Below, piece by piece: positions 11,432-64,000 of a DNA stretch of 64,000 bases (the first letter of the stretch is position 1; the number at the start of each line of letters is the position of its first letter). The notes below the pieces were generated by a model. That model was not told the origin of the DNA, searched no databases, and saw only the letters and a program-made list of their open reading frames with translations. The DNA comes from Candidatus Anderseniibacteriota bacterium. GTDB lineage: Bacteria; Patescibacteriota; Andersenbacteria; UBA10190. The translations under genes and the position numbers were made by a program. The stretch lies in assembly GCA_040900375.1 (NCBI GenBank), contig JBBDZC010000012.1:39301-103300 (forward strand). The letters are read 5' to 3'.

Positions 11432-12142
11432 ATGAGCATACTTCGTGATATTCAATTTAGGACAACTGATGGGAAGGGCGGCTACATAGCCCTTGATCGT
11501 TTTCCTGATTCTTGCCCAGCATGCGACCAGTCTATTGAGCCAGTCTTCGTTGATGCCTTCTCTAATTACACTGGAAGCATGGACGGTTTTCTGCAGGCAG
11601 TTTTTCGTTGCCCAAGACATAAGTGCGGGAGAATTTTCCTTGCGTATTATGTCGGTTCAAGAAGTATGCGCTCCGATTTAATGGAATTAAGCCAGATTGG
11701 CATTTTGACATCAGTGGAAGGTCGCTCTTTTGACCAGATAATCAGGGATATGTCAGAACGATTTACGGTTATATACCTTCAAGCCGAAATTGCGGAGCAT
11801 AATGGCTTAAAGGAGATATGTGGTCCAGGGTATAGAAAGGCACTTGAATTTTTGATTAAGGATTATTTGCTTCGGCAATGTGGAGGAGATGCACATAAAG
11901 AAGCCGCGGTAAAAAAGAAGAAGCTAGGAGCCGCCGTAAAAGACATTGACGATAGCAACATTCAGGCAACGGCAAAACGTGCTGCTTGGCTGGGAAATGA
12001 CGAAACGCACTACGAACGCAAATGGACCACTAAGGACCTGACTCACCTTAAAGACTTGATATCCTTAGTTGTGAACTGGATTGAGAACACAGAAAAAACT
12101 AAAAAATATGTGGAAGAAATGCCTGAAGAAGTAACTCCGTAG
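11432..12142 (+). CDS. Zinc-ribbon + DUF4145-like domain protein (candidate defence/abortive-infection component)
   Basis: Cys cluster CPAC...CPRHKC in the N-terminus. The C-terminal region (...YRKALEFLIKDYLL...RAAWLGNDETHYERKW) matches the DUF4145 pattern (R..GN...H). About 40% GC versus a flanking ~53%. Confidence 0.55.
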   Translation: MSILRDIQFRTTDGKGGYIALDRFPDSCPACDQSIEPVFVDAFSNYTGSMDGFLQAVFRCPRHKCGRIFLAYYVGSRSMRSDLMELSQIGILTSVEGRSFDQIIRDMSERFTVIYLQAEIAEHNGLKEICGPGYRKALEFLIKDYLLRQCGGDAHKEAAVKKKKLGAAVKDIDDSNIQATAKRAAWLGNDETHYERKWTTKDLTHLKDLISLVVNWIENTEKTKKYVEEMPEEVTP

Positions 12143-12143
12143 T

Positions 12144-12749
12144 ATGCCTGACGAAAAAATAAAAATATCCGAAAAAGACTTTGAGGAGTTCATGCAAAAG
12201 CAAGGTTCAAAGTTTTTTCAAATAGAATCGGATGCAATGGGTGCTTATGGGGATAAGCAAATGGAACTTTTCTACAAAATTCTTGATTTTACCTATAAAA
12301 CTCTGACGGTAATCGCCTTAGTGGCTGGTTTTGGATTTACCGGGTTAGATAAGGTGCACAGTATATTACTCTTCGTTTTGGGCGAGGGATTTCTTTTCGC
12401 TGCAATTATCTACGGGCTGTATTGGGTGCAAAAAGTTTATGAAAGCAACCTTGATGCGTTGGATAAAGCTAAGGTGCGAATCAAGGAAGGTTTTGCTGCT
12501 CGTAATGCTGCCTTCAGAAAAATCTACAACAGCTACTTAGAAAAGAAAGAGGTAGAAAAGGCTGATATGGAAGATTTAACGCAAAAGAATAATGATTTGC
12601 TTCAAGTGTTTGCGGGCAAAACAGGTGAAAATAACAAGCAAGAAAGGACCCCACTCAAGCCCATAATGATTTTGTTTATTGCAGGCTCAATCTTAATTTT
12701 ATTTTCCTTTCCTTTCATATGTACCTTCGTGTTCTTATCTAAAATCTAA
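12144..12749 (+). CDS. Three-TM membrane protein, translationally coupled to the DUF4145 gene (candidate effector)
   Basis: Starts 1 nt after the upstream stop. Two central TM helices, a long charged amphipathic region and a C-terminal TM. Very AT-rich (about 33% GC at the 5' end). Confidence 0.5.
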   Translation: MPDEKIKISEKDFEEFMQKQGSKFFQIESDAMGAYGDKQMELFYKILDFTYKTLTVIALVAGFGFTGLDKVHSILLFVLGEGFLFAAIIYGLYWVQKVYESNLDALDKAKVRIKEGFAARNAAFRKIYNSYLEKKEVEKADMEDLTQKNNDLLQVFAGKTGENNKQERTPLKPIMILFIAGSILILFSFPFICTFVFLSKI

Positions 12750-12758
12750 CACGATTTT

Positions 12759-13541
12759 TCAGCTCCGAATCATAGCGTCAAAAAAGGTTGGACCACCTTG
12801 TTTTGCTGATTCAGATTGCAAGCTAGCAAGGGTTGAAATCATTGCGCTATTCACCTCAAAAACAAAATCTTTACTTACCACCATTCGGTCATTAGCTAAG
12901 ACATTCAGCGCCCCGCTAACTGTGCCTTCGTGAATCAAGTTAATTTCAAGATTTTCAAACTCAATTGCTAGGCGGGCGATTCCCTTCCTAGCTACCACAA
13001 TAGGAAGGCGAGTCGTAAAATCATCTGCTCTACTCCCATTCTCGTTAATTTTGAAAAACTTCTTGAAATGCACAATACCATCACCCAAAGTAACGTAAAC
13101 CGCTTTAATTGCCACCGGCGCCTCGCTTTGGTTGTGAAAGGTAAATTCTAGGTGGATGCGAGTACCTGGAAGCTCCTGGCTCTTAATAACGCCCATAAAA
13201 GGACTAAGCGTTAAGAAAGACTGTTCAGTTGGACTATCATCTACCACGGGTGGCTTGTCTGAGGATGTAGTGCGCATAAGGTCTTGTATCTGTGCCACCA
13301 TGGTATCGTTGGCGCCGGATATTTGGTAAATGTTGAAGTTGGAGTTGTGAGTAGTATTGCCGACACCACCCTCAATATCCTTAATTGTCATTTTTTGCTT
13401 ATTTCTACTGGCAATTTCTTTATGCTCTTTAAAGTTATGGGAATTGTTCCGATTCCAAGTAAACGGAATAGACAATTTACCGACCAAATCTTTAAACCAA
13501 GATGATTCCATATCATCAGCATTTTGCTCTTTTTCCTGCAA
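12759..13541 (-). CDS. Hypothetical protein (island cargo), no recognised domain
   Basis: 260-aa ORF, low GC, convergent with the two-gene module. Ends about 130 nt from the 3' end of tRNA-Gln. Confidence 0.45.
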   Translation of the reverse strand: MQEKEQNADDMESSWFKDLVGKLSIPFTWNRNNSHNFKEHKEIASRNKQKMTIKDIEGGVGNTTHNSNFNIYQISGANDTMVAQIQDLMRTTSSDKPPVVDDSPTEQSFLTLSPFMGVIKSQELPGTRIHLEFTFHNQSEAPVAIKAVYVTLGDGIVHFKKFFKINENGSRADDFTTRLPIVVARKGIARLAIEFENLEINLIHEGTVSGALNVLANDRMVVSKDFVFEVNSAMISTLASLQSESAKQGGPTFFDAMIRS

Positions 13542-13677
13542 ATTTCAAGCAGGAAATGGGGGTTTTGAAGGCTAGGCTTGTAACTCTGTCATTGAAACGA
13601 GTTCTGCCAGTTGGCTTGAGGATAAAGGGGTCAAGTACAATTATTTCTGCATCTTGATCTAGCGACTATTGTGCGTG

Positions 13678-13748
13678 TTCCGGGACAGGGATTCGAACCC
13701 CAATTTTCAGGTTCAGAGCCTGACGTCCTGCCGTTAGACGATCCCGGA
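13678..13748 (-). tRNA. tRNA-Gln (anticodon CTG)
   Basis: Acceptor TCCGGGA/TCCCGGA, anticodon stem TCAGG/CCTGA with loop CTCTGAA, T-loop TTCGAAT. 71 nt. Confidence 0.85.
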
Positions 13749-18680: not shown

Positions 18681-19109
18681 TTAAGAGACGGCAACGGGAA
18701 CGGTTCGGCCTTCTTTTAAGAAACGCCAGGATAAATCTGGCCGGCGCTCCAGGTGGTATGCATCTTTCAGGCGCTCGCTAAAGCAACTCTGCGCGCTGAC
18801 CCATTGGTGCGGCTTGCGCTCGCCCGAAGAGTAACGGACCCACCACGAGTTATTCTGCAGGGCAAGACAGTAAACTCCGTACGTTATGTCAGGGTCTTTT
18901 TGCAGAGCATACTGGTGAGCGGAGCGACAATAAGGCTCATTCTCGGCAATGACCGCCGCCAAGGAAAGAGTCCGACTAGTAGGGCGATGGCACCAGTGAT
19001 CCAAATCCTCATGGGTTAGCTCTGCGCCAGTCAGGAGTCTAAGCAGCCGCTGTGGGTGTTCATGGCGAGACGACATCTCCACGTTATTCATGGGAATCCT
19101 TTCTGTCAA
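18681..19109 (-). CDS. Hypothetical Cys/His-containing protein
   Basis: 142-aa ORF immediately downstream of the priA homolog on the same strand. No recognised domain. Confidence 0.4.
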   Translation of the reverse strand: MTERIPMNNVEMSSRHEHPQRLLRLLTGAELTHEDLDHWCHRPTSRTLSLAAVIAENEPYCRSAHQYALQKDPDITYGVYCLALQNNSWWVRYSSGERKPHQWVSAQSCFSERLKDAYHLERRPDLSWRFLKEGRTVPVAVS

Positions 19110-19215: not shown

Positions 19216-21117
19216 CTAGAGAATTCGTTCAGGAGTGACATCAACCCGATCGAGTGGCAGAGAGGCGTACAGCGAGGTAAGTGTGTCGAGAGCACCTAAT
19301 AGTAAGAGGTGGCGTTCATACTTGCCGCGGCGCTTGGTAAGAAAACTGCTAAACGGTCCCCGAATACTGACCGGCGTACCCGCTGTCATTTTCTCTTCGA
19401 TAGCTGTACGCAATGCGATAGCTTTATGGTCTGCTCCGGCGGGGGTAGCGCTGGCGGCTGTGATAATCACTGCTTCCCGGACTGGAGGATAGCCAAAATG
19501 CTGGCGCTCGCGTAACTGACGCTCGGCGAAGGCTGTTGGGGTAAGGATTAATTGATCGGCAACCAGTTGCTCTTTGCGCGTCACGATCACAACAGGCTGG
19601 CGGGCAGGCAGGAGAGACTGTAAACGAACAAGCGTATAATATGTGCGCTCCGAACTCCGGAAATCAGGGTAGAGTAAGCCCCGTTCGGGGAAGAGGTACA
19701 CCGCGTGCTCAAGACGCTGATTCGCGAGGGCAGCAAAAAGGGCAGTCGTTCCCAGGATGACTGTCCCACCCTTGAGAGTGCTTAGGGGAGAATTAGGGCG
19801 ACGGAGGGTATCAGCATCAAGTCGGAGGAGGGAAGCGGAAGCAGGCAGAAGTTCCTGCAAAAGGTCAGCGATTTTTTCTGTGCCGGCACCAAAGGAACGC
19901 AGCTTTTCCTGGTGACAGTGCGGGCAACGAGACGGGACTGCCTGTACCTTCCCACAGTGATGACATTGGAGACGGCGTAAGCCGGGCCCATGCACCGTGA
20001 AAGCAATATTACACTCGGGACAGCGCACAGCCTGATGACATGAACTACAAACAATTGTTTGCCAGACACCCCGTACATTATGGAGAATCGCGATACGCTC
20101 ACGTGCGGCCACCCAGCTTTTTAGCTGTCTCACAAACGTCGAGGGCAAACTCAAGTACTGCTTTTGCTCCGCCTCGGATAAAGCTATGACCCTAGGTTGC
20201 GGCAGACGGGGACGCCGTGTCAGCGGCGGTAAGGTGCCAGAAGCAACGGCGTGTTCTATGCGGAGCGAGGGGAAGCTTGTGGCATAGACTTGCACAGCGT
20301 GGTGAATTCCTGCCAGCACCCGGCTGATATCGAGATTGTGGAGGCGCGGATATTGATCCCATAATTTGTGGGTGCTGTAAAATTCTTCTTCGATCACAAT
20401 TACACCAAGGTTAGCGAAAGGTAAGAAAGCTGCTTTCTGGGTACCAATGATAAGCTGCAGGTTACCCGTGCGAACCTGGTGCCAGATCAGCGTAGATTGC
20501 TTCGGGGTCAAATCAGCGTGCATGAGGGCGAAGCGAGAAGCGGCGGTGGTGGTCTCCGCGAGACGAGCAATATGCTCGAGCATCCATTTTTCCGGGACTA
20601 ATATTAACACTTGTCGGCTTTGGCGCCAGGCTTGCTCCATCCGGGGTAGGTAGCGGCGAAAACGACTCATAAGCCTTCGGGCCACCACGACGGTATCATT
20701 GGCAATGAGCGGGGGAGCGGGGGAGGGCTGGGTGAGAACGGTCTGCGCCGCAGCCGGAAAAGATGGTGACTGCTGGCGCGTGACTGCTGGCGGATAGAAG
20801 AGACGCAACGTGTAGCCTAAACCCCCGCGCATGGTGCGATGAATCCAATGCGCAAATTCCACCTGGCGCGCAGTGAGCTGCAGGGGGGAGAGAAGAGTTA
20901 GCTCCTTGGTGAGGTAGGGGACACGCTGACGATGTACATTAACTACTACGCCCGGCACAACACGGCGGCCAAAAGGAATGGTTACCCGGGCAAATATCTC
21001 GGGCTCATGGCGTAGGGTAGCCGGCACATGGTAGGTGTAGGCCTGGGCGCTGGTGGCCGGCAGAGGAATGGCAGGGGCGACCTCGACATACACACGTGAT
21101 TTTTTTGTAGATACCAT
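19216..21117 (-). CDS. priA: Primosomal protein N' (PriA) homolog with degenerate ATPase motifs
   Basis: Collinear with PriA through the helicase core and the Cys-rich region (CSSC...CPEC...CHHC...CPHC). Walker A is absent (RRLMSRFRRYLP where GVTGSGKTEVYL is expected). Motif II reads IEEEF (expected DEEH). Motif VI lacks GRAGR. Confidence 0.75.
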   Translation of the reverse strand: MVSTKKSRVYVEVAPAIPLPATSAQAYTYHVPATLRHEPEIFARVTIPFGRRVVPGVVVNVHRQRVPYLTKELTLLSPLQLTARQVEFAHWIHRTMRGGLGYTLRLFYPPAVTRQQSPSFPAAAQTVLTQPSPAPPLIANDTVVVARRLMSRFRRYLPRMEQAWRQSRQVLILVPEKWMLEHIARLAETTTAASRFALMHADLTPKQSTLIWHQVRTGNLQLIIGTQKAAFLPFANLGVIVIEEEFYSTHKLWDQYPRLHNLDISRVLAGIHHAVQVYATSFPSLRIEHAVASGTLPPLTRRPRLPQPRVIALSEAEQKQYLSLPSTFVRQLKSWVAARERIAILHNVRGVWQTIVCSSCHQAVRCPECNIAFTVHGPGLRRLQCHHCGKVQAVPSRCPHCHQEKLRSFGAGTEKIADLLQELLPASASLLRLDADTLRRPNSPLSTLKGGTVILGTTALFAALANQRLEHAVYLFPERGLLYPDFRSSERTYYTLVRLQSLLPARQPVVIVTRKEQLVADQLILTPTAFAERQLRERQHFGYPPVREAVIITAASATPAGADHKAIALRTAIEEKMTAGTPVSIRGPFSSFLTKRRGKYERHLLLLGALDTLTSLYASLPLDRVDVTPERIL

Positions 21118-21199: not shown

Positions 21200-21299
21200 A
21201 CCAACCCCACGTACTTACTTCCACAACCGCGGGTCCAGCCTTCGCTAAGGCTTAAGTCACCCGCGGCTGATGGGGGAATGAATCAGGTAGGGTTGGTAT
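21200..21299. repeat. MITE-like ~98-bp element, copy 2
   Basis: ATACCAACCCCACGTACTTACTTCCACAACCGCGGGTCCAGCCTTCGCTAAGGCTTAAGTCACCCGCGGCTGATGGGGGAATGAATCAGGTAGGGTTGGTAT. Abuts the stop of the AMMECR1-like gene. Confidence 0.7.
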
Positions 21300-21817
21300 C
21301 ACTCATCGTAATGGGTCACTTCAAAACGATACATCGTGAAATCCTCGCGGTGGGAATCAATCCGTGACTCACGCAAAGCCGTAGCAATTTGGTCTTGGCC
21401 TGTTTCGATGCCAACCCGTTGGGGCAACAGCAGCGCTGATTTTTCCGTCGTGGACTTGAGGTATAGCCCAAAATGTTGGGGATCTAAATGATCGGGATCA
21501 CTAATACGCTGGAGGGGGCCCAACAGTGCCACACTATAAACCAAATACGATAAGTCTGCGTGGCGCACGCGGCGGGTTTGGTGATTGCTAATCGCAATAA
21601 TCGTATTAGTAATAATTTCTTCAGCAAGAGTGGGTTGATAGGGTAAAGGCTGGCCATACATGGAGCGCAAGCGCCGTCCCGGATTCTCAAAAATTGAGAC
21701 ATAGCATGCTTTCTGTCGCAAGGCCTCGGGCGGTAGGGCAGGGGGTAAGGGCAACGGTTCGTTGGTGCGAACATAATGTTCGGCAGAATGGCGGGCTAAT
21801 TTAACGTAGGTGCTCAT
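21299..21817 (-). CDS. AMMECR1-domain protein
   Basis: KACYVSIFENPGRRLRSMYG resembles the AMMECR1 core (G.FVT....LRGCIG-like). 172 aa. Confidence 0.55.
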   Translation of the reverse strand: MSTYVKLARHSAEHYVRTNEPLPLPPALPPEALRQKACYVSIFENPGRRLRSMYGQPLPYQPTLAEEIITNTIIAISNHQTRRVRHADLSYLVYSVALLGPLQRISDPDHLDPQHFGLYLKSTTEKSALLLPQRVGIETGQDQIATALRESRIDSHREDFTMYRFEVTHYDE

Positions 21818-53675: not shown

Positions 53676-55154
53676 GTGCACCCGCGAGGCGGGCGCGTTA
53701 TGCTATCTTATGTGAAGACACGAGGTCGTATGCTAGATCAACGTCATGACAAACCGCGCCGCTCCACGGCGGCGGGGACGGGCTCACGCGTGCCGCCGCA
53801 GAACCAAGAGGCTGAAGAATCAGTCCTGGGCAGTCTGCTGATTGATAAAAACGCTATGGTTGCCGTAGCGGATTTTTTGAACGCGGAAGATTTCTATAGC
53901 GACAAGCACGGCATCATCTACCAGAGTATGGTAGAACTCTACGAAAAGAGCGAGCCGATTGATATCCTATCGGTAATGAACCGCCTGAAAGAGAAAAAAC
54001 AGCTGACGTTGATCGGCGGCGAGAATTTAGTTACCCACCTGGCCACAGTTGTACCCACTGCCGGGAATGTCTCTCACTATTCTCGGATCGTCCAAAAAAA
54101 TTCAACGCTGCGCCGGCTAATCTCCGCCGCCGCTGATATTACAGAGCTCGGTTTTGCTGAAGCAGAAGAAATCGATGTGGTTCTTGATAAAGCCGAGCAG
54201 GCACTATTTGCTGTCTCCCAAGACCATAAGCAGAGTAATTTTATTAAGCTCTCGGAAGCGCTCGAAGATGCCTTTGTGCGTATTGATAAGCTCCATAAGG
54301 GCGATAAGGATTTGCGGGGGGTAACGACTGGTTTTGGTAGTCTGGATAAGAAACTGGCGGGCTGGCAAAACTCTGATCTTATTATCCTGGCCGCCCGTCC
54401 GTCAGTCGGTAAGACAACTTTAGCGCTCGACTTTGCCCGCCATGCAGCCTTGAAGGGGGTGCCAGTCGGGGTGTTTAGCCTGGAAATGTCGAAAGAGCAA
54501 TTAGTTGATCGCATGCTCGCCGCCCAAGCCCATGTTGATCTGTGGCGACTGCGCACGGGCAATTTAGAGACCGGCGGTGAATTTGATGATTTTTCTCGGA
54601 TTGGCGAAGCTATGGGCGAACTGTCAGAAGCGCCGATTTACATTGATGACCATGCCTCTACCGGGGTGATGGGCATGCGCACGATGGCCCGGCGTTTGCA
54701 GGCAGAACACGGCTTAGGCTTGTTGATTATTGATTATCTGCAGCTGATGGAGTCGAGCCGTTATGTTGATAATCGCGTGCAAGAAGTTTCTGATATTTCG
54801 CGCAGCCTGAAGCGCTTAGCGATTGAGCTTAACGTGCCGATTATTGCTTTATCCCAGCTATCCCGAGCAGTGGAAATGCGTACGGATCAGCGCCCTAAGC
54901 TCTCCGATCTCCGTGAATCAGGCAGTATTGAACAAGATGCTGATGTTGTCCTCTTCATCCACCGTCAGCCTTTGGCGGAAGGCGTTGAGCGGCCGGATAC
55001 GCTTGATATTTCTCTGCTCATTGAAAAACATCGTAATGGCCCCACGGGAGAGATACCGATGCGCTTCCATAGCCGCTATGTTTCCTGTACCGAACCAGAA
55101 GATGCTTACGAAGAAATTTCACTGGCCTCTCCCGCGCGCGTTGCTCTTTCTTAA
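53676..55154 (+). CDS. dnaB: Replicative DNA helicase DnaB
   Basis: N-terminal PPQNQEAEESVLGSLLID and a RecA-like domain with Walker A AARPSVGKTTLAL. Confidence 0.9.
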   Translation: MHPRGGRVMLSYVKTRGRMLDQRHDKPRRSTAAGTGSRVPPQNQEAEESVLGSLLIDKNAMVAVADFLNAEDFYSDKHGIIYQSMVELYEKSEPIDILSVMNRLKEKKQLTLIGGENLVTHLATVVPTAGNVSHYSRIVQKNSTLRRLISAAADITELGFAEAEEIDVVLDKAEQALFAVSQDHKQSNFIKLSEALEDAFVRIDKLHKGDKDLRGVTTGFGSLDKKLAGWQNSDLIILAARPSVGKTTLALDFARHAALKGVPVGVFSLEMSKEQLVDRMLAAQAHVDLWRLRTGNLETGGEFDDFSRIGEAMGELSEAPIYIDDHASTGVMGMRTMARRLQAEHGLGLLIIDYLQLMESSRYVDNRVQEVSDISRSLKRLAIELNVPIIALSQLSRAVEMRTDQRPKLSDLRESGSIEQDADVVLFIHRQPLAEGVERPDTLDISLLIEKHRNGPTGEIPMRFHSRYVSCTEPEDAYEEISLASPARVALS

Positions 55155-55365: not shown

Positions 55366-55959
55366 ATGCTTCCCAAAGCTGTTCGAGATTTAACCCAAGA
55401 GCTTACGCGCCTGCCAGGAATTGGGCCAAAGACGGCGCAGCGCTTAAGTATTTACCTATTGCGCCAGCCCCGCGCTGTGGTGGCCCGCTTTGCGGATACG
55501 TTAAAAAATCTCCACGCTAATGTACGAATCTGCAGCCAGTGCTACAACTTAGCCGAAGATACAATTTGTATTGTGTGCCAAGACCAAATGCGTAGTCCTA
55601 AACTCCTCTGTGTGGTCGAAGATGCTCTCGATGTTGAGGCAATTGAGCGTACCAACTCGTACGAGGGACGATACCATGTTTTAGGTGGGGTTCTTTCCCC
55701 GCTTGAAGGAATTGGGGTCGAGCAATTGACGCTCCGAGAGCTTTTTTCCCGGGTAGACCACGAGCAGATTGAGGAACTTATTATTGCCCTCGATCATACG
55801 ATGGAAAGCGAGGCTACCACCCGTCATATCATTAACCACCTGCGCGGCATGCCTATTAAAATCACGCGCTTGGCGCGTGGTTTACCTACTGGGGGTGATA
55901 TTGAGTTTGCTGATACCCTCACATTGACTGCCGCGCTAAGCGGTCGTAAAAAACTCTAA
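55366..55959 (+). CDS. recR: Recombination protein RecR
   Basis: HhH LPGIGPKTAQRL, C4 zinc finger CSQC...CIVC, and a Toprim domain. Confidence 0.9.
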   Translation: MLPKAVRDLTQELTRLPGIGPKTAQRLSIYLLRQPRAVVARFADTLKNLHANVRICSQCYNLAEDTICIVCQDQMRSPKLLCVVEDALDVEAIERTNSYEGRYHVLGGVLSPLEGIGVEQLTLRELFSRVDHEQIEELIIALDHTMESEATTRHIINHLRGMPIKITRLARGLPTGGDIEFADTLTLTAALSGRKKL

Positions 55960-62274: not shown

Positions 62275-62883
62275 ATGGCTTATAGCGACTTGACCAAGCG
62301 GCAAAGTGAGACCCTCGATTGCATCCGCAACTTTTTAGCCCAGCACAACTATGCGCCCAGTTATCGCGACATTATGAAGGACACTGGCATTAGTTCTCCC
62401 GCCACCGCCTACGCTCATGTCCAGGCACTGCGGGACAAGGGTTATCTTAAATTACGGGATGGGCAAATGCGCTCGGTAGAACTAACAGAGAAATCTAATA
62501 TGTTCACGCGCGGTATTGAGTTGCCGCTGGTAGGTGCCATTGCGGCGGGAGAGCCGATCGAGGCTATTGAGAATAAGGAAAGCATCGCTGTGCCGCTCGA
62601 ACTCTTGCCTAATCTTAATTGTTATGCCCTGCAAGTTAAGGGTGACTCCATGATTGAGGATGGTATTCTCGACGGCGATTACGTGATCGTGGAGCGCAAT
62701 TTTTATCCCAATAATGGTGATGTGGTAGTGGCCTTAATTAGTAATGAGAATGCGACCCTCAAGCGCTACTACCGGGAGAAAACCCGGATTCGACTACAGC
62801 CAGCTAATAAAAACATGAAGCCTATTTACACTCGTAACCCTGTGATTCAAGGCATTGTTCGGGGGGTGCTGCGCCGGTATTAA
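62275..62883 (+). CDS. lexA: SOS repressor LexA
   Basis: N-terminal winged HTH and a C-terminal S24 peptidase with VGAIAAGEPIEA cleavage region, Ser in GDSM and Lys in TLKRY. Confidence 0.9.
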   Translation: MAYSDLTKRQSETLDCIRNFLAQHNYAPSYRDIMKDTGISSPATAYAHVQALRDKGYLKLRDGQMRSVELTEKSNMFTRGIELPLVGAIAAGEPIEAIENKESIAVPLELLPNLNCYALQVKGDSMIEDGILDGDYVIVERNFYPNNGDVVVALISNENATLKRYYREKTRIRLQPANKNMKPIYTRNPVIQGIVRGVLRRY

Positions 62884-63327: not shown

Positions 63328-64000
63328 TCATGACTCTATTGATTCACCTTCAGACAAGCCTGCCGCCGGGGTAGTTGTCTCAATTTGGTCTAAGCGATTG
63401 GAGAATTTATCTAAGCGGCGGGCGGAATCGTCAAAACGGTTTTTAGCATTCCCCAAGTGCTTACCGACCATAGTGAAATCATCAGCGAATTGTTTAAAAT
63501 CATGCCGGACTGTATTTAAGGCTTGCAAGATCTCGCGGGCCTGTTGTTGGATCTTCATGCCGCGGAGCCCCAGTAAAATAGTTTGCAGGTACGCCAGAAA
63601 ACTATTAGGGGAAACCGGAATGACCTTATGGCTTAAGCAAAATTCCCATAAACTCTCCCCTGCCGGATCATGGACCATGGTTTCGTAGTATACGCCTTCA
63701 ATGGGAATATACATAAATGCGAATTCTAAAGTTTTTTCGGTCGGGGCAATGTACTTGCGAGCGATGTCAGTAATATGTTTCTTGATATCGCGCCGGAAGG
63801 ATTGGCGCGCCAAAGCCTTGCGCTCTGGAGTTCGCTCATCCATGAAAAGTTGGTAATTAGCGAGCGGAAATTTAGCATCAATCGCCACGATGTAGCCGTC
63901 CTGGAGGCGAATAATCGCATCGGCAATCTCCCCGCTGCTGGGCAACGTAAACTGGGTAGCATAACGATCATGGGGTAAAACATCGGCGAGCAAATTGGTC
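63328..64000 (-). CDS. rmuC: DNA recombination protein RmuC, C-terminal part (5' end off-window; the listed 63993 start is internal)
   Basis: The C-terminal RmuC nuclease-like domain pattern (...IDAKFPL...YIPIEGVYYE...). The frame stays open to the window end. Confidence 0.75.
   Translation of the reverse strand, partial: TNLLADVLPHDRYATQFTLPSSGEIADAIIRLQDGYIVAIDAKFPLANYQLFMDERTPERKALARQSFRRDIKKHITDIARKYIAPTEKTLEFAFMYIPIEGVYYETMVHDPAGESLWEFCLSHKVIPVSPNSFLAYLQTILLGLRGMKIQQQAREILQALNTVRHDFKQFADDFTMVGKHLGNAKNRFDDSARRLDKFSNRLDQIETTTPAAGLSEGESIES

Follow-up and report, generated by a model that had tools for sequence, protein, structure and literature searches.

A probable PriA pseudohelicase in Candidatus Andersenbacteria that keeps the DNA-recognition modules of PriA around degenerate ATPase motifs

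The 64,000-nucleotide stretch of contig JBBDZC010000012.1 analyzed here (the window), from a Candidatus Anderseniibacteriota bacterium, carries on its reverse strand a priA-like gene whose predicted product has kept the domain order of PriA and has lost the sequence motifs of its ATPase core. The gene is a single unbroken open reading frame (ORF) with an ATG start, 633 codons long plus a stop. Its product is 100% identical to a protein that NCBI lists, by automated annotation, as [quoted passage not shown] (MAG, metagenome-assembled genome), encoded on a 109.5-kb contig, and the source lineage is Patescibacteria, or candidate phyla radiation (CPR), Parcubacteria group, Ca. Anderseniibacteriota. 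The gene and the elements of its product, with the basis on which each was placed, are as follows.

19216..21117, (-) strand: priA-like gene, predicted PriA pseudohelicase (intact ORF, PriA homology, AlphaFold2 model, Foldseek)
20791..21090, (-) strand: 3′ DNA-binding domain (3′BD), residues ~10-109 (Pfam PF17764)
20695..20790, (-) strand: linker, residues 110-141, short and poorly conserved (22% mean column identity; predicted local distance difference test, pLDDT, <50 at 114-128)
20623..20694, (-) strand: former Walker A element, made up of strand TVVV (142-145), loop ARR and a helix from 149 (alignment to canonical PriA)
20380..20391, (-) strand: motif II relic EEEF (243-246) in place of DEEH (alignment, pattern search)
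20335..20379, (-) strand: aromatic-rich loop (ARL, or motif IIa), residues 247-261, YSTHKLWDQYPRLHN (alignment, conservation)
20275..20283, (-) strand: motif III relic ATS (279-281) in place of SAT (alignment)
19903..20064, (-) strand: Cys-rich region (CRR), residues 352-405 (four CxxC, at 357, 366, 385 and 398)
19615..19629, (-) strand: motif VI relic VRLQS (497-501) in place of (Q)VAGRAGR (alignment)
19219..19497, (-) strand: C-terminal domain (CTD), residues 541-633 (alignment, AlphaFold2)

The relationship to PriA is apparent in both sequence and predicted fold. A phmmer search of PDB chains matched E. coli PriA at E 1.5e-41 (query 154-606 against PriA 231-692), and its alignment recovered the collinear pairing proposed in an earlier sequence-only reading of this locus, hereafter the original prediction (QVLILVPEKWML.EHIARLAE; LILVPEKWML / LVMVPEIGL). 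The NCBIfam equivalog model for priA, TIGR00595, aligns to the query only from residue 156, that is, past the Walker A position. An AlphaFold2 model built on 37 members of the Andersenbacteria clade is confident almost throughout (mean pLDDT 88.1, predicted template-modeling score 0.86), with pLDDT below 50 at the linker (114-128) and at the loop 249-254 only. Its top Foldseek match in the PDB is the fork- and PriB-bound E. coli PriA (8fak_H, template-modeling score, TM, 0.80), followed by apo and ADP-bound PriA structures at TM ~0.65; PriA structures stand far ahead of the next family, Mfd, at TM ≤0.4. Where canonical PriA has a glycine-rich P-loop, the model runs from a strand (142-145) through three residues directly into a helix beginning at 149, so that structure prediction bears out both the PriA fold and the absence of the loop.

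Sequence comparison points to an ATPase site that has been erased motif by motif. In a 120-sequence alignment that includes canonical PriA, the query ARRLMSRFRRY lies opposite HGITGSGKTEIY at motif I (ARRLMSR opposite ITGSGKT), and a pattern search found neither GK[ST] nor [AG]x4GK anywhere in the 633-aa protein. Counting back from an aligned tyrosine (Y156, E. coli Y234) places Arg152 at the position of the Walker lysine (E. coli K230); this arginine is invariant in 37 of 37 clade sequences, and the substitution is the same K-to-R change found in E. coli priA300 and in the PriAs of Deinococcus-Thermus. The site is thus not random sequence, even though the former Walker A segment as a whole is the least conserved folded part of the protein (35% mean column identity). 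At motif II, IVIEEEF lies opposite IIIDEEH; EEEF at 243-246 is the sole DExH-like string in the protein, and E243 is kept by at least 90% of the clade. Motif III reads ATSFPS opposite GSATPS. Motif V is unrecognisable (ILGTTALFAALA opposite LIGTQMIAKGLH), with GTTALFAA at the aligned position as against the canonical GTQM..KG. At motif VI, RLQSLLP lies opposite QVAGRAGR, with R498 invariant and the GRxGR arginine motif gone. Motifs I, II, III, V and VI of an active superfamily 2 (SF2) DExH helicase are therefore each missing, and the motif states given in the original prediction (no GK[ST], IEEEF for motif II, ATS for motif III, VRLQS for motif VI) all stand in the larger alignment. We infer from the sequence that ATPase activity is absent. 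As a matter of speculation, a structural salt bridge between R152 and the EEE triad may replace the Lys-Asp contact of P-loop nucleoside triphosphatases (NTPases).

A sequencing or assembly frameshift hiding intact motifs was considered and ruled out. When the gene and its flanks (300 nt on either side) were translated in all six frames, no P-loop GK[ST], DExH or GRxGR appeared on the coding strand, and hence no frame that could restore the canonical motifs; the same state is shared by dozens of independent assemblies.

Outside the nucleotide site, the 3′BD, ARL and CRR are retained, as is a probable CTD. The 3′BD is recognised by PF17764 at 17-109 (41.3 bits against a cutoff of 22.7, E 1.4e-10) and conserves the motif YTY opposite E. 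coli F16-D17-Y18; T28 and Y29 (opposite D17 and Y18) vary little or not at all across the clade, and the same holds for the GGLGYTLRLF block. The winged-helix domain is absent, the interval from residue 109 to 142 being too short to fit one, and canonical CPR PriAs (~660 aa) likewise do without it. No stretch of the protein is better conserved than the ARL (84% mean column identity), in which H250, K251, W253, Y256, P257 and L259 are invariant. In the phmmer alignment it corresponds to E. coli K328-H336, where K251, Y256 and R258 match K328, W333 and R334; the E. coli loop can be crosslinked to the DNA of a fork (PMC5175346). Further motifs conserved in the clade are LVPE (motif Ia), GTQKA (motif Ib) and YPDFRSxER. 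As the original prediction held for the CRR, all four CxxC pairs are present, and 8 of 8 cysteines align with those of the E. coli CRR; six of the eight never vary among full-length clade members, and the remaining two are conserved to at least 90%.

The degenerate state is not peculiar to this genome. Some 75 cluster representatives from a word-indexed search share the motif states of the window protein, to which their full-length identity is 31-47%. When 1.84 billion representatives were searched with a profile, ~80 clusters (50% identity) scored above ~380 bits, and among the GTDB species, each represented by one genome, 27 genomes proved to carry this type of priA. The search of relatives that had been suggested with the original prediction thus returns the same substitutions, and the degenerate ATPase state is fixed across the whole Andersenbacteria lineage. 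The 27 genomes are labeled Ca. Andersenbacteria or Anderseniibacteriota, "uncultured Saccharibacteria", or simply "bacterium"; many MAGs with an Andersenbacteria-type priA were deposited as "uncultured Candidatus Saccharibacteria bacterium", a label that is probably generic or incorrect.

The locus has a stable neighborhood. A LigT-like gene, a WecG/TagA glycosyltransferase gene, gltX and an M23 peptidase gene recur on one side, transketolase, rpe and rpiB on the other, and an AMMECR1-family gene adjoins or overlaps priA at most of the 27 related loci, as it does at two further ones (L028 and L029). In the window this last neighbor is:

21299..21817, (-) strand: AMMECR1-family gene, adjoining priA upstream on the same strand (Pfam PF01871, E 7.5e-19)

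Overlaps of a few bases between the two genes are frequent in relatives, and in the window a gap of 181 nt separates them.

The gene is under purifying selection and is not decaying. Between the close full-length orthologs P0010 and P0012 (synonymous divergence, dS, 0.91), the ratio of nonsynonymous to synonymous divergence (dN/dS) is 0.08 for the whole gene and ranges from 0.01 to 0.28 by domain, with 0.04 for the 3′BD, 0.01 for the CRR, 0.04 for lobe 2, 0.08 for the CTD and 0.14 for the former Walker A segment. A separate observation concerns the homolog at L018:1797-3401, which is otherwise collinear and carries an in-frame stop (TAA after ...YEKVFA); it may be a pseudogene or reflect a sequencing error.

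Within the clade the protein occurs in three grades of reduction: ~630 aa with the CRR (the window type), ~540 aa with the CRR deleted, and ~400 aa without the N-terminal domain. The CRR is deleted wholly in many members of ~510-590 aa (P0033, P0037, P0040, P0044 and others; loci L009-L016, L019 and L022), which keep the 3′BD, the aromatic loop, YPDFRSxER and the CTD, and is therefore dispensable in part of the lineage. One CRR-less sequence, P0067 (508 aa), reads AWISPGKT at the aligned Walker A position (~118-125), which fits [AG]x4GK[ST], and has DEEQ and no motif VI; because it is a lone sequence without motif VI, we treat the match as a relic or a coincidence. The ~400-aa grade turns out to be a split gene, in which a 3′BD ORF of 101-110 aa ends right past the GGLGYTLRLF block and the start of a ~400-aa core ORF either overlaps it at ATGA or follows within a few bases. 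The break coincides with the linker that is disordered in the model of the window protein. The split genes are:

L020:873-2392: split priA, two ORFs
L021:703-2237: split priA, two ORFs
L023:9992-11454: split priA, two ORFs
L025:718-2263: split priA, two ORFs
L026:10001-11517: split priA, two ORFs
L027:1147-2490: split priA, two ORFs
L024:3743-5268: split priA, seventh case, two ORFs

Both the split 3′BD and the core ORFs show dN/dS of 0.04-0.18, again indicating purifying selection.

Comparable motor loss extends beyond this clade. Two profile searches (proteins P0164-P0232 and P0233-P0348) returned, below the Andersenbacteria clade, many other short PriAs of 620-690 aa without motifs I, II, III and VI and with the four CxxC pairs kept, some of those from the second search being labeled Ca. 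Parcubacteria (P0249), Ca. Falkowbacteria RBG_13_39_14 (P0336) or "bacterium" (P0343). Among 113 representatives of short PriAs, 57 lack motifs I, II and VI together and 43 are fully canonical, figures that show breadth and not frequency, since the search itself started from degenerate queries. Some sequences are intermediate, for example with GKT and DEEQ but no motif VI. In neighbor-joining trees the Andersenbacteria clade is monophyletic and long-branched and stands beside other degenerate CPR PriAs, the trees being too crude, and long-branch attraction too likely, to support a count of loss events. Motor-dead PriA thus looks widespread in the CPR, as far as a biased sample can indicate. 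The view in the original prediction that such variants are rare is not borne out: the state is lineage-wide in Andersenbacteria and recurs in 57 of the 113 short CPR-type PriA representatives of the biased sample.

A PriA without a motor has a precedent. The PriA of Deinococcus radiodurans has no ATPase or helicase activity and binds single-stranded DNA (ssDNA), forks and DnaB (PMC4504706; Lopper, Boone & Morrow 2015). The sequence hallmarks of a pseudohelicase in that work are found here as well: clear descent from PriA, a Walker A lysine replaced (by R152) and a poor Walker B (EEEF). Compared through its description in that paper rather than by sequence alignment, the Deinococcus protein shares with ours the Lys-to-Arg change in Walker A, the poor match to Walker B and a proposed role as an ATP-independent scaffold. 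It differs in lineage, Deinococcus-Thermus as opposed to CPR/Patescibacteria, and the motor was therefore presumably lost independently in the two. Erosion is also more complete here, the glycine-rich loop, the Ser/Thr and motifs III, V and VI having gone as well, and the window protein lacks the winged helix and has only 633 aa, with relatives that lose the CRR or split the gene. In E. coli, K230R abolishes PriA's activity as an ATPase, helicase and translocase and leaves primosome assembly and near-wild-type growth (PMC5778457, PMC4504706), and ATPase-dead PriA still supports the PriA-PriB restart pathway (PMC5778457, PMC10175261). K230R (priA300) and K230A/D resemble the window protein in that the Walker lysine is substituted, in K230R by the very change seen at R152. 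Unlike it, they are laboratory point mutants with an otherwise canonical core, whereas the present protein is natural, fixed and multiply degenerate; moreover, their partners are PriB, DnaT and DnaC, proteins that one would not expect beyond the Proteobacteria.

Canonical PriA from E. coli and K. pneumoniae (4NL4, 6DGD, 8FAK) shares with the window protein the order 3′BD, lobe 1 with ARL, lobe 2 with CRR and, by alignment, the CTD, eight zinc-ligand cysteines at almost identical spacing, and the fold (Foldseek TM 0.65-0.80). It differs in having the winged helix and motifs I, II, III, V and VI, in one ARL tyrosine and in its PriB-docking residues, the last two being taken up below together with the model scores. 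Upon fork binding, the CRR, lobe 2 and CTD of the E. coli protein form an ssDNA pore (PMC10175261). The split genes, too, have a counterpart: a suppressor with a new start codon at 157 makes E. coli PriA as two polypeptides and is almost fully functional (PMC5778457). This mirrors the natural separation of 3′BD and core in six Andersenbacteria relatives, with the differences that the E. coli split falls inside the winged-helix domain and arose in the laboratory, and that the window gene is unsplit. A restart review regards PriA helicase activity as conserved across bacteria with Deinococcus as the sole exception (PMC5778457), and our literature search found no paper tying PriA to CPR, Patescibacteria or Parcubacteria. 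The PriA pseudohelicase as such is already known from Deinococcus-Thermus; its breadth in the CPR and the natural reduction series are new.

Elsewhere in the window, genes with normal domain hits include recR (55366-55959), lexA (62275-62883), rmuC (63328-63993) and the presumed client of PriA:

53676..55154, (+) strand: dnaB, replicative helicase, presumed PriA client (Pfam DnaB_C 324 bits, DnaB N-terminal domain 110 bits)

With dnaB, recR, lexA and rmuC present, the organism keeps a recognisable replication and repair toolkit together with an SOS-type regulator. Pfam scans of 30 neighboring and other window ORFs gave no PriB, DnaT, DnaD, DnaC/DnaI or DciA. Two further features stand apart from these genes. 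Directly downstream of priA lies a 142-aa ORF (18681-19109, (-) strand) that gives no Pfam hit and that none of the 27 related loci shares; it is either confined to its lineage or no true gene. Farther off, a stretch of low GC (0.42 vs ~0.51) at 11432-13541, with three ORFs of 236, 201 and 260 aa without a Pfam hit, adjoins a tRNA-Gln gene (13677-13748) and looks like a small integrated or foreign island.

Taken together, the sequence comparisons indicate that the window gene is probably the lineage's own PriA, converted to a pseudohelicase. The original prediction of a PriA that binds DNA and partners without hydrolysing ATP is supported by sequence, structure and evolution, its loss of ATPase activity being read from the sequence. 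By analogy with the characterized proteins, a likely role for the product is that of an ATP-independent scaffold for fork recognition and replisome reloading, and we infer on the same basis that it binds DNA forks, acts in restart and has DnaB as its client. Most likely, the protein would serve as a structure-specific sensor of abandoned forks and D-loops that needs no ATP. [quoted passage not shown] The fork-bound protein would then nucleate the reloading of DnaB, either directly or via an adaptor. The lagging-strand arm would not be unwound by the protein itself; unwinding would be left to other enzymes, or the forks may already bear a single-stranded gap. This is probably the scaffold mechanism already proposed for such proteins.

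Several observations weigh against this reading. The priA equivalog model and the Pfam models for the CRR and CTD score slightly under their curated cutoffs: TIGR00595 at 222.4 bits (cutoff 230.35), PF18319 for the CRR at 23.9 bits (cutoff 26), and PF18074 for the CTD at 547-609 with 19.4 bits (cutoff 26.9), the last in a region that aligns to the E. coli CTD with high pLDDT. At the position of E. coli Y335, without which PriA does not function as a helicase, the clade has an invariant leucine, and the function of the ARL may therefore have changed. In E. coli, PriB docks on CRR residues D438, S481, T482 and H483, whose counterparts here are S359, Q403, E404 and K405, a difference to be expected of an organism outside the PriB-bearing lineages, and the CRR is lost altogether in some relatives, from which it follows that it is not essential to the core function. 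Finally, the search for a second priA covered the 64-kb window, where tblastn with four canonical PriAs found this gene alone.

That last point leaves room for the main alternative, in which the gene is a spare, degenerate paralog beside a canonical, ATP-hydrolysing priA elsewhere in the genome and either has some other DNA-binding role or is being lost. The window's limited share of the genome and the bare NCBI annotation as a hypothetical protein would allow for it; however, no second PriA-like sequence lies within the window, each of the 27 species genomes carries one such locus in the same housekeeping neighborhood, none of the canonical PriA matches is labeled Andersenbacteria, and a dN/dS of 0.08 argues against a copy on its way out. 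CPR genomes are small, and duplicate replication genes are seldom kept in them, which counts against the paralog too, and we consider it unlikely. If the gene were instead a non-functional relic or an assembly artefact, the loss of every catalytic motif and the in-frame stop in the L018 relative would be explained, but not the intact 633-codon ORF, the same architecture in dozens of independent assemblies, the confidently modeled PriA fold, the invariant motifs outside the ATPase site or the dN/dS of 0.04-0.18 even in the most reduced, split relatives; the conservation data effectively refute this idea.

The remaining alternatives accept a functional protein and assign it a different activity. 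It could still work as an NTPase or translocase through a nucleotide site of non-canonical type, with R152, the EEE triad, R487, R491 and R498 as candidate residues: several charged residues around the former active site (R152, E243, R487, E490, R498) are invariant, and E. coli PriA has been proposed to possess a second, weak site for nucleotides (PMC5778457). Yet the P-loop, the Walker Ser/Thr, the motif II histidine and motif III have disappeared together with the arginines of motifs V and VI, K230R by itself kills the E. coli ATPase (PMC5778457), the former P-loop shows the lowest conservation of any folded region, and structural salt bridges would explain the conserved acid-base residues equally easily, all of which makes a cryptic NTPase very improbable. 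Alternatively, an inert scaffold may have been recruited to another process, such as the binding of recombination intermediates, regulation or defence, as might be suspected from the lack of PriB, DnaT, DnaD or a loader among the Pfam hits near the gene, the unconserved PriB-docking residues and the AMMECR1-family gene as conserved neighbor. Such a switch is disfavored, and appears improbable, because constraint is strongest on the fork-specific modules, namely the 3′BD with the end-binding motif YTY, the ARL and the CTD; in addition, the neighborhood is one of housekeeping genes and not a defence island, and the pseudohelicase of D. radiodurans still binds forks and DnaB (PMC4504706).

With a restart scaffold as the preferred reading, a broader view can be put forward tentatively, as something close to an even call: loss of the PriA motor would be the normal state in a large part of the CPR, and the Andersenbacteria would present a stepwise natural deletion series in which the ATPase motifs were lost, then the CRR, and the 3′BD was finally released as a separate polypeptide, with purifying selection acting at each step. 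If true, the series would define a minimal ATP-independent PriA, consisting of the 3′BD, two inert RecA lobes with the hyper-conserved aromatic loop, and the CTD, and it would imply a restart pathway that operates without PriA unwinding and without a CRR-docked partner. The natural CRR-less and split relatives offer ready-made constructs for asking what a minimal restart factor needs.

For the biology of these ultra-small bacteria, a second, apparently independent and far more eroded pseudohelicase lineage suggests that what selection preserves in PriA is an ATP-independent scaffold function, and the hints of many motor-dead PriAs across the CPR point the same way. Conservation singles out the DNA-contacting aromatic loop, the 3′BD and the CTD, and not the nucleotide site. 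Expectations for CPR organisms that are based on the PriA ATPase would then be wrong, and since automated annotation calls such a protein hypothetical, the capacity for replication restart in CPR genomes is likely under-called.

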